A stretch of DNA of 32,000 bases from Candidatus Methanoperedens sp. (GTDB lineage Archaea; Halobacteriota; Methanosarcinia; Methanosarcinales; Methanoperedenaceae). Under the pieces are notes generated by a model that saw only the letters and a list, made by a program, of their open reading frames with translations, had not been told where the DNA came from and did not search any database. A program made the position numbers and the translations under genes. The DNA is taken from assembly GCA_041494705.1 (NCBI GenBank), contig JBGQBI010000001.1, forward strand, positions 120,001 through 152,000, given 5' to 3'. Below, in pieces: positions 30,226 through 30,405 of the stretch; within the stretch, counting starts at the first letter, position 1, and every line of letters starts with the position of its first letter.

Positions 30226-30405
30226 TTACCAATGCCAACCGTTTGCACATGATGAACACTCTTCTACAATGGCCTTATGGGCTGCTGCTACGGCATCCTT
30301 CAAATCCTTCGCATCAACCGTCACATTCTTTGCCTTCAGTGCTTTTTGAAGGGCAGAAATTCCCTTTTCCGTATTGGCCTTTTCAGAAATTTTCGCTTCA
30401 CTCAT
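30226..30405 (-). CDS. RiPP precursor peptide candidate (59 aa), C-terminal core ...EECSSCANGWHW
   Basis: The ORF track gives a 69-aa form from TTG 30435. The ATG at 30403-30405 has a strong GGAGGTG 7 nt upstream and gives MSEAKISEKANTEKGISALQKALKAKNVTVDAKDLKDAVAAAHKAIVEECSSCANGWHW. It lies 153 nt upstream of, and on the same strand as, the radical SAM/SPASM gene. Confidence 0.7.
   Translation of the reverse strand: MSEAKISEKANTEKGISALQKALKAKNVTVDAKDLKDAVAAAHKAIVEECSSCANGWHW

Follow-up and report, generated by a model that had tools for sequence, protein, structure and literature searches.

The ribosomally made peptides with post-translational modifications (RiPPs) described so far include several systems that resemble, in part, the one reported here. 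Cyanobactins carry prenyl groups placed by F-type enzymes, and DUF5838 is the family of the LynF/TruF/PatF peptide prenyltransferases. The radical S-adenosylmethionine (radical-SAM) enzymes SuiB and CteB bear N-terminal recognition elements; an invariant core with diverged surroundings is the pattern of PqqA and MftA; ComQXP of Bacillus yields the Trp-prenylated pheromone ComX; and QhpC/QhpD/QhpG serve the maturation of the cysteine tryptophylquinone subunit. We analysed a 32,000-nucleotide stretch of DNA from Candidatus Methanoperedens sp. (assembly GCA_041494705.1, contig JBGQBI010000001.1, positions 120,001 to 152,000; hereafter the window, whose own numbering is used below). In it, a 59-codon open reading frame (ORF) for a putative precursor peptide is followed by genes for a radical-SAM/SPASM enzyme, an F-type prenyltransferase and a flavoenzyme. 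We consider it probable (roughly 0.7) that these four genes form a RiPP cassette whose product, according to the mechanism proposed below, would be a small crosslinked and lipidated peptide of fixed sequence.

Conservation of the precursor peptide

The precursor ORF lies on the minus strand, from an ATG at 30405-30403 to a TAA at 30228-30226, and its product is MSEAKISEKANTEKGISALQKALKAKNVTVDAKDLKDAVAAAHKAIVEECSSCANGWHW (59 aa). Seventy ORFs of 40 aa or more overlap the last 10 kb of the window, and the size of this one is by itself no evidence above chance; its conservation is what makes it real. A search of protein databases returned 14 homologues with 71-100% identity, those with names all being Candidatus Methanoperedens, and the total exceeds 25 distinct homologues in Methanoperedens and other Methanosarcinales. 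A profile search against 1.84 billion representative proteins added about 12 further clusters, in which the leader is strongly diverged and the core is kept as C-x-x-C-[A/T]-[N/T]-G-W-[H/R]-W-stop.

An alignment of 15 sequences shows no variation at residues C50, C53, A54, G56, W57, H58 and W59, nor over a large part of the leader (the block given in Table 1). The invariant core residues are written with synonymous codons among 16 distinct nucleotide versions: Cys as TGT/TGC, Ala as GCA/GCT, Gly as GGT/GGC/GGA/GGG and His as CAT/CAC. When pooled, the ratio of non-synonymous to synonymous polymorphism (pN/pS) rises from 0.19 in the final ten codons through 0.35 in the leader to 0.99 in the three-codon linker that separates the two. 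These values, together with the synonymous variation at invariant residues, place selection at the level of the protein: the precursor is under purifying selection, and a spurious ORF is ruled out by selection acting on codons. By this codon-level evidence the ORF is a real gene, with a conserved leader, a neutral linker and a near-invariant core, the leaders diverging while the core is kept.

The limits of core and linker are established, the conserved core comprising ten residues, C50-W59 (CxxCANGWHW-stop); Trp is the last residue before the stop in every member of both cassette types considered below. An earlier note, made from the letters of this stretch, had proposed a terminal core beginning EECSSC. 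A conserved C-terminal core does exist, but its proposed extent did not hold, as both EE and SS vary. E48/E49 are replaced among the homologues by VG, ED, GD, AD, KD, DN or MD and S51/S52 by DS, EQ, EG, SG, DG or AQ, and these four are the most variable positions of the C-terminal part, which speaks against the Cys thioethers onto EE/SS (QhpC-like Cys-Glu links) suggested in that note. Its description of the composition proved correct when re-read from the sequence: residues 1-47 contain no Cys, Trp, Pro, Phe or Tyr and a single His (position 43), residues 48-59 are EECSSCANGWHW, and there is no GG or GA site in the precursor. The same is true of the start codon, since a strong Shine-Dalgarno sequence stands before the ATG only. 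The alternative in-frame TTG at 30435 has no upstream purine-rich stretch and lies inside a palindrome (30440-30421), whereas AAGGAGGTGA precedes an M-S-[E/D/G] start in nearly all related loci, and this conservation supports the ATG.

A conserved four-gene cassette

The four genes lie on the same strand in the order precursor, radical-SAM/SPASM enzyme, F-type prenyltransferase and flavin adenine dinucleotide (FAD)-dependent amine-oxidase-fold enzyme, with intergenic gaps of 153, 21 and 11 nt and a total size of 3.9 kb. The identical order is found in other Methanoperedens and Methanosarcinales assemblies, and peptide and operon occur together in at least 10 genomes. The precursor ORF adjoins the maturase gene and is co-oriented and co-inherited with it: all homologous operons with an available upstream region contain a peptide ending in CxxCA[N/Y]GWHW-stop. 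This agrees with the proposal that the precursor belongs to the adjacent SPASM enzyme; homologous clusters devoid of a small ORF, which would have spoken against it, were looked for and did not appear among the loci with upstream sequence. At one locus (L015, 3984-4447) there are two tandem precursor genes with the same core except for one variable position (CEQC vs CAQC).

The distribution of the cassette was assessed with a prenyltransferase profile against one genome per species (185,579 species). The scan gave 10 loci, all in Methanoperedens, 'Methanosarcinales'/'Methanosarcinaceae' metagenome-assembled genomes or 'uncultured archaeon' assemblies. The flanks are unrelated between loci, comprising cheC/cheD (L001), purine biosynthesis genes (L002) or, in the window, ThiF/UbaA-TusA and aspartyl-tRNA synthetase (AspRS) genes. 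In one Methanoperedens genome (L001, 7059-12483) all four genes have been inserted into a chemotaxis operon, with cheC on one side and cheD on the other. Because the flanks differ completely, we place ThiF/UbaA and TusA (divergent, upstream) and AspRS (downstream), which are absent from every other locus, outside the system. Recent transfer of the cassette was also considered and rejected, there being no flanking repeats and a GC content like that of the neighbours. In L004 (9151-10023; the same as L013), and in no other locus, a UbiA-family prenyltransferase gene stands directly 3' of the flavoenzyme gene.

The radical-SAM/SPASM enzyme and its wider clade

The family assignment of the maturase is firm, with Pfam scores of 56 bits for Radical_SAM and 40 bits for SPASM, both above the cut-offs. 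The CX3CX2C motif (C137/C141/C144) is invariant in 23 diverse relatives, and so are seven SPASM cysteines (C370/C388/C432/C435/C441/C448/C466); there is no eighth. By comparison with the CteB structure, seven SPASM cysteines would presumably leave one auxiliary cluster with a site open for a substrate Cys. An AlphaFold model built from the 23-sequence alignment has a predicted local distance difference test score (pLDDT) of 91, and of about 90 in residues 1-100. Its N-terminus shows, ahead of the barrel, strands at 10-12, 15-19, 24-28 and 36-38 and helices at 41-49, 56-66 and 72-86. The best matches in the PDB over the full length are SuiB, SkfB and CteB, with 16-18% identity to the solved enzymes. 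On the strength of this modelled topology, the N-terminal domain would be a RiPP recognition element.

Radical-SAM homologues with 42-53% identity occur in Methanosarcina thermophila-type and other metagenome contigs, next to precursors ending in CEQCANGARW, CDQCSSGMRW, CTSCENGMRW, CDSCVAGWHW or CDQCTNGAHW. We refer to these as type-B loci (L018/L025/L046, which are the Methanosarcina thermophila-type, L023, L044/L045, L100 and L020). Their cassettes are without DUF5838 and flavoenzyme and carry instead an uncharacterised protein family of about 281 aa, accompanied in most of them by a squalene-cyclase/prenyltransferase-like alpha-alpha-toroid protein; no curated family was found for the type-B cassette proteins. 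The idea that the 281-aa protein might be a hidden ABBA prenyltransferase is unsupported (profile-profile probability 0.7-7.8%). Whichever partner enzymes are present, members of the radical-SAM clade at 42% identity or more always come with C-x-x-C-x-x-G-x-[H/R]-W-stop. The features linked to the clade are thus C-x-x-C, Gly at -4, His/Arg at -2 and the terminal Trp, as these are the ones that the type-B cores keep.

More distant relatives of the radical-SAM enzyme (24-41% identity) adjoin Cys-rich C-termini, for example SCNPGCQDGCSAGCKSSCKTGKA, CPGCIACTCMICI and NCTTTCAAGCTIYCSTGTH, so that Cys, as far as these sequences reach, is the sole substrate feature common to the whole clade. Because of this shared Cys and the seven SPASM cysteines, formation of a Cys-derived thioether is most likely the radical-SAM step. 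Among peat and bog metagenome contigs (L028-L042), relatives with 37-41% identity are found beside precursors of about 90-120 aa, whose N-terminus (GRRKFLKTALIS...) resembles a twin-arginine signal and whose C-terminus is, for example, CNKASCNPGCQDGCSAGCKSSCKTGKA. Judged by these ends, they are another uncharacterised Cys-rich peptide family.

The prenyltransferase and its mosaic alleles

The third gene encodes a protein that scores 66.2 bits against Pfam DUF5838 (cut-off 28.8) and 72.5 against NCBIfam TIGR04445, below its cut-off of 140. The protein aligns with residues 27-272 of the best PDB chain (E=5e-22), and LimF, DciF, PagF and PirF are also matched. Members of the F-type family prenylate Tyr, Trp, His, Arg, Ser/Thr and peptide termini, and do not need a leader (PMC12371840, PMC12715784). 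The suggestion of Trp or His prenylation, made in the earlier note, is a sensible candidate, since the gene two past the precursor encodes a full-length homologue of these enzymes. The core is GWHW in 15/15 distinct DUF5838 cassettes; among the cassettes that do not have DUF5838, position 57 is mostly A or M, and W57 occurs in only one type-B core.

Protein identity between the window and L004/L014/L015 is 88-92% for the radical-SAM enzyme and 88-91% for the flavoenzyme, against 52-57% for the prenyltransferase. The synonymous divergence (dS) is correspondingly 1.4-1.9, that is saturated, in the prenyltransferase gene and 0.15-0.35 in both flanking genes. Sliding nucleotide identity is 90-97% along the radical-SAM gene and remains so for ~190 nt into the prenyltransferase gene. 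Between about 28430 and 27830 (minus strand), a mosaic segment of ~600 bp, it is 45-60%, and it is again >90% in the last prenyltransferase codons and the flavoenzyme gene; the boundaries are sharp. The precursor of L011 is nearly identical to that of L004, yet its prenyltransferase is of the window-type allele throughout. The central 600 bp therefore exist in at least two functional versions that diverged anciently and have been exchanged by recombination within an otherwise conserved cassette, and the prenyltransferases of L005 and L006 look like further allele types. The ratio of non-synonymous to synonymous divergence (dN/dS) is about 0.2-0.26, and the gene is still under purifying selection; columns rich in Lys, Arg, Tyr and Asp stay invariant across the alleles.

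The core peptide is the same across the prenyltransferase allele types. This suggests that the mosaic reflects selection on the prenyl decoration (length of the donor or position) and not on the peptide. It is unusual for a frozen core to go together with prenyltransferase alleles that diverged anciently and recombine, and this would be a new way of diversifying a RiPP.

The flavoenzyme and leader removal

The flavoenzyme is 78-98% identical across cassettes and among their most conserved proteins. A profile of six flavoenzymes, compared with PDB sequences, matched only the N-terminal FAD-binding motif of amine, L-amino-acid and polyamine oxidases and gave no clue to the substrate.

Of the DUF5838 cassettes, L006 diverges most (radical-SAM enzyme 72% and prenyltransferase 42% identical); in it the gene after the prenyltransferase (2949-3890; likewise L007, 1965-2678) replaces the flavoenzyme and matches Peptidase_C13 above the cut-off. 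This legumain-like protein has the His-Gly and Cys motifs HTNNHG and EQCYSGG. Legumain-type enzymes cut after Asn or Asp, and the L006 precursor has an Asn directly before its first Cys, as do several distant family members. The peptidase is a hint, and the only direct one, of proteolytic release. The earlier note had reported no recognisable cleavage motif, which holds for the window; the neutral linker of three codons and the combination of C13 peptidase and Asn before the first Cys in L006 nevertheless point to a place, and leader cleavage is probably immediately before C50.

Proposed pathway and alternative explanations

In the pathway that we propose, the radical-SAM enzyme would bind the conserved leader of ~49 residues, probably helical, through its N-terminal recognition domain. 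This enzyme would install one or two crosslinks in CxxCANGWHW, most likely thioether bonds that join C50, C53 or both to residues further downstream, and the strictly C-terminal Trp would be part of what it recognises or modifies. The prenyltransferase would put an isoprenyl group on W57, H58 or W59, independently of the leader if the analogy with cyanobactin prenyltransferases holds, and the flavoenzyme would oxidise either the modified core or the prenyl group by two electrons. A protease encoded elsewhere in this genome would remove the leader directly before C50. Owing to the ancient alternative prenyltransferase alleles, the prenyl decoration would depend on the strain. We infer all of these chemical steps, their order and the biological role of the product.

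Several results weigh against this pathway. There is no protease, exporter or immunity gene in the cassette of the window, a situation with which an intracellular or cofactor-like role is compatible. No PqqD-type Pfam match was obtained when the radical-SAM N-termini of four family members were scanned alone. Among the best 25 of 39 matches, to which our NCBIfam statements for the cassette enzymes refer, all curated radical-SAM models are below the cut-off, the best being MftC (TIGR03962; 58 bits vs 265) and GeoRSP (58 vs 400); because no curated radical-SAM family reaches its cut-off, homology does not tell the type of reaction. SuiB, which is the best match in structure, forms a Lys-Trp C-C bond and not a thioether. 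The core of L020 is WHW in the absence of a DUF5838 prenyltransferase, which weakens the link between this motif and the enzyme. The flavoenzyme is placeable by its sequence at the level of fold only, and its single-sequence AlphaFold model (pLDDT 33) is unusable.

The terminal Trp gives rise to a serious rival for the thioether step. The radical-SAM enzyme might instead form a C-C or C-heteroatom cyclophane on aromatic residues, by a W57-x-W59 or His-Trp link (streptide, darobactin, triceptides) or by an MftC-like oxidative decarboxylation and crosslinking of the terminal Trp, the CxxC pair staying free as a disulfide or metal-binding site. Such a reaction would fit the Lys-Trp crosslinking by SuiB and the finding that each of the three clade members tested has its best NCBIfam match in MftC, which acts on a C-terminal aromatic residue; the Trp-stop in every member of both cassette types likewise implies chemistry or recognition that needs a free C-terminus. 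Against this, W57 is replaced by A or M in type-B cores, so that a W-x-W link is not the common reaction of the clade; every family-model score is far below its cut-off; the distant relatives accompany Cys-rich cores without aromatic residues; and the absence of Lys from the core makes a streptide-type link impossible. We regard the cyclophane as unlikely, if still deserving of attention, and retain the Cys thioether.

A further possibility, in our estimation rather improbable, is that the product is no secreted peptide and that, as with mycofactocin or PQQ, a small-molecule cofactor or electron carrier is derived from the peptide. The C-terminal residues would in this case be crosslinked, excised, oxidised by the flavoenzyme (in analogy to oxidative deamination by MftD) and prenylated for anchoring in the membrane. 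An invariant core, kept despite leaders diverged almost past recognition and a prenyltransferase only 42% identical, is what such a product would lead one to expect, and the missing exporter and immunity genes, the high conservation of the flavoenzyme, the UbiA-type gene that continues one locus and the match to MftC would all agree with it. The accessory distribution is patchy, however, with 10 loci in the genome scan and variable contexts, no client oxidoreductases are co-located, the tests for mycofactocin families all fail, and ancient prenyltransferase alleles would be expected of a signal or antagonist undergoing diversification more than of a cofactor that is fixed. That the ORF is a stand-alone small metal-binding or redox protein whose location is incidental is hardly credible: its CxxC and His would make a plausible metal site and the conservation of its N-terminal region resembles that of a folded helical domain, but in the loci examined the peptide is never apart from the radical-SAM gene, through unrelated contexts and a change of partners, one locus has tandem copies, and a conserved leader set apart from an invariant core by a neutral linker is what RiPPs show.

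Returning to the crosslinked and prenylated peptide, we can offer a role for it as speculation, against which the odds are considerable: the decapeptide might be converted into a molecule, peculiar to archaea that oxidise methane anaerobically, which is redox-active or serves in signalling. It could be either an electron carrier or metal-binding cofactor that derives from the peptide and is anchored in the membrane, its logic like that of mycofactocin but with a lipid tail, or else a pheromone of the ComX kind in archaea. What keeps a role as cofactor or signal in consideration is the frozen core, together with the lack of export and immunity genes and the high conservation of the flavoenzyme. 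If the pheromone were the true case, the prenyltransferase alleles would define strain-specific 'chemotypes' on one peptide.

Regulatory elements and other genes of the window

The features of the locus are collected in Table 1. The putative TATA box TTTATATA would act as the promoter, and A/T-rich TATA-like boxes stand at a similar distance in related loci. The palindrome, which shows a symmetric double substitution in L009 (AAACATTA...TAATGTTT), may be an operator or a hairpin in the 5' untranslated region. The stem-loop is present in all cassette loci, with compensatory changes in three of nine predicted pairs, and is a probable attenuator or mRNA stabiliser. This layout would suit strong expression of the precursor, with transcription reading through in part to the genes of the enzymes, an arrangement that is common in RiPP operons.

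Table 1. Elements of the cassette locus, in window numbering
Feature	Position	Strand	Description and basis
TATA-box-like TTTATATA, candidate archaeal promoter	30475..30482	minus	~70 nt 5' of start codon
Perfect 8+4+8 palindrome AAACATTG-CATT-CAATGTTT	30421..30440	minus	abuts Shine-Dalgarno sequence; conserved in Methanoperedens loci
Shine-Dalgarno sequence GGAGGTG	30412..30418	minus	6 nt 5' of precursor ATG
Precursor leader (residues 1-49)	30259..30405	minus	conserved block EKGxSALQKALKAKNVxVDAKxLKDAVAxAHKA, then variable 3-4 residue linker; alignment, pN/pS
Core CSSCANGWHW (residues 50-59) and TAA	30226..30258	minus	alignment, synonymous codon variation
Stem-loop CCTTCCCGTGTC / AAATTAA / CACCGGGAGG	30184..30212	minus	13 nt past precursor stop, before radical-SAM gene
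Radical-SAM/SPASM peptide maturase, 477 aa	28639..30072	minus	Pfam Radical_SAM and SPASM; N-terminal RiPP-recognition-element topology
F-type (cyanobactin-like, ABBA-fold) peptide prenyltransferase, 272 aa	27799..28617	minus	Pfam DUF5838, PDB matches
FAD-dependent amine-oxidase-fold oxidoreductase, 407 aa	26564..27787	minus	Pfam Amino_oxidase E=4e-20, NAD_binding_8; last operon gene

Elsewhere in the window, positions 10473-15659 (minus strand) encode mevalonate kinase, an amino-acid-kinase-family protein, a flavin mononucleotide (FMN)-dependent dehydrogenase, RNase J and a polyprenyl synthase. The second and third of these are probably isopentenyl phosphate kinase and type-2 isopentenyl diphosphate isomerase, and the genes make up an archaeal mevalonate-pathway cluster, which supplies prenyl diphosphates. 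These genes (10.4-15.7 kb) were rejected as parts of the system, being housekeeping genes 11 kb away and unlinked in other genomes. Genes for CO dehydrogenase/acetyl-CoA synthase (Prismane/CODH alpha, epsilon and beta) and a CooC-like ATPase at 559-5862 (plus strand) fit a Methanosarcinales/Methanoperedens genome. A 455-aa protein at 16922-18289 (plus strand) contains the core domain of an extracellular contractile injection system (eCIS; PF13699, E=2e-30), which is unusual beside housekeeping genes.

Comparison with known systems

Literature searches for the core motif CANGWHW gave zero occurrences, and no description of the cassette was found in searches on Methanoperedens RiPPs and biosynthetic gene clusters, on Methanosarcina SPASM precursors, on DUF5838/PF19156, or on RiPPs with an amine oxidase and a radical-SAM enzyme; no curated family model for the system was found either. 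The combination of a SPASM radical-SAM enzyme, a cyanobactin-type prenyltransferase and an amine-oxidase-fold flavoenzyme was not found described in these sources, and, acting on an almost frozen ten-residue core, it makes new peptide chemistry likely. To our knowledge, few modified peptides are known from archaea, and we found none described for Methanoperedens, anaerobic methane oxidisers that matter for the methane and nitrogen cycles. At 3.9 kb the cassette is small enough to be tested directly by heterologous expression.

As regards the cyanobactins, the 272-aa enzyme is a full-length homologue of their F-type prenyltransferases (PagF, PirF, LimF, KgpF, AcyF, AgcF/DciF). In contrast to them, the host is an archaeon and the partners are a radical-SAM/SPASM enzyme and a flavoenzyme. 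There is no macrocyclisation and there are no flanking recognition sequences, the core ending at the stop in all members, and subtilisin-like proteases of the PatA or PatG type were not found in the cassette or its flanks (window, L001, L004, L005). The substrate of the prenyltransferase would accordingly differ, being a linear or crosslinked C-terminal core, and the cassette is rejected as a cyanobactin on these grounds.

Like SuiB (streptide), CteB (SCIFF thioether peptide), SkfB, AlbA and MftC, the maturase combines a predicted recognition-element-like N-terminus, a radical-SAM barrel and a SPASM domain with two auxiliary clusters, and as in those systems the precursor gene lies directly upstream, with a C-terminal core as in MftA. 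The motif C-x-x-C-x-x-G-x-[H/R]-W-stop was not found among curated family models or in the literature searched. Membership among the sactipeptide and ranthipeptide maturases (AlbA, SkfB, StsB, PapB, SCIFF maturase) was not borne out, the scores for thioether families being far below the cut-offs (AlbA 50 vs 850, StsB 31 vs 625, SkfB 29 vs 300, SCIFF maturase 26 vs 425). The cassette also stands apart from the Trp-crosslinked class (streptide/WgkB, darobactin/dynobactin, triceptides), with a WgkB score of 48 bits vs 650, weak DynA/AmcB matches that concern relatives only, a core devoid of Lys and a variable W57; agreement with the substrate motifs of that class (Lys-Trp pair, W-x-W-x-K, aromatic-x-x triads) was looked for and not borne out.

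Mycofactocin is similar in the terminal aromatic residue of a short precursor, the invariant core, and an operon that holds a flavin oxidase and a decorating enzyme for group transfer. It differs in that homologues of MftB, MftD, MftE and MftF are absent here, the flavoenzyme has the FAD amine-oxidase fold (MftD has an FMN fold), the predicted decoration is a prenyl group and not a sugar, the core is CxxCANGWHW and not ...GVY, and the MftC model falls short of its cut-off as stated above. The Qhp system shares with the cassette a peptide containing Cys and Trp, a radical-SAM/SPASM enzyme and a flavoprotein. The Glu needed for Cys-Glu thioethers (E48/E49) is, however, not conserved here, the cassette has a prenyltransferase and no dehydrogenase subunits, and a QhpD- or QhpG-type match was absent from the best 25 of 39 NCBIfam matches and from the PDB matches listed. 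With the family tests failing, the cassette is rejected as mycofactocin, as a known sactipeptide or ranthipeptide, as streptide, as darobactin and as a QhpC-type system.

For the mosaic prenyltransferase, the closest analogy would be the comQXP polymorphism of Bacillus. In both systems a Trp, probably isoprenylated in the present case, lies close to the C-terminus of a short peptide, and the prenyltransferase is strikingly polymorphic inside a conserved neighbourhood. ComQ, on the other hand, is polyprenyl-synthase-like and unrelated to the F-type enzymes, ComX sequences vary between pherotypes whereas the core of the cassette is invariant, a linked receptor kinase gene is absent here, and ComQXP has neither a radical-SAM nor a flavin step. 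Judged from its predicted proteins, the cassette would operate as a leader-guided radical-SAM RiPP pathway with tailoring, into which a cyanobactin-type prenyltransferase has been borrowed, and probably represents a new RiPP family.

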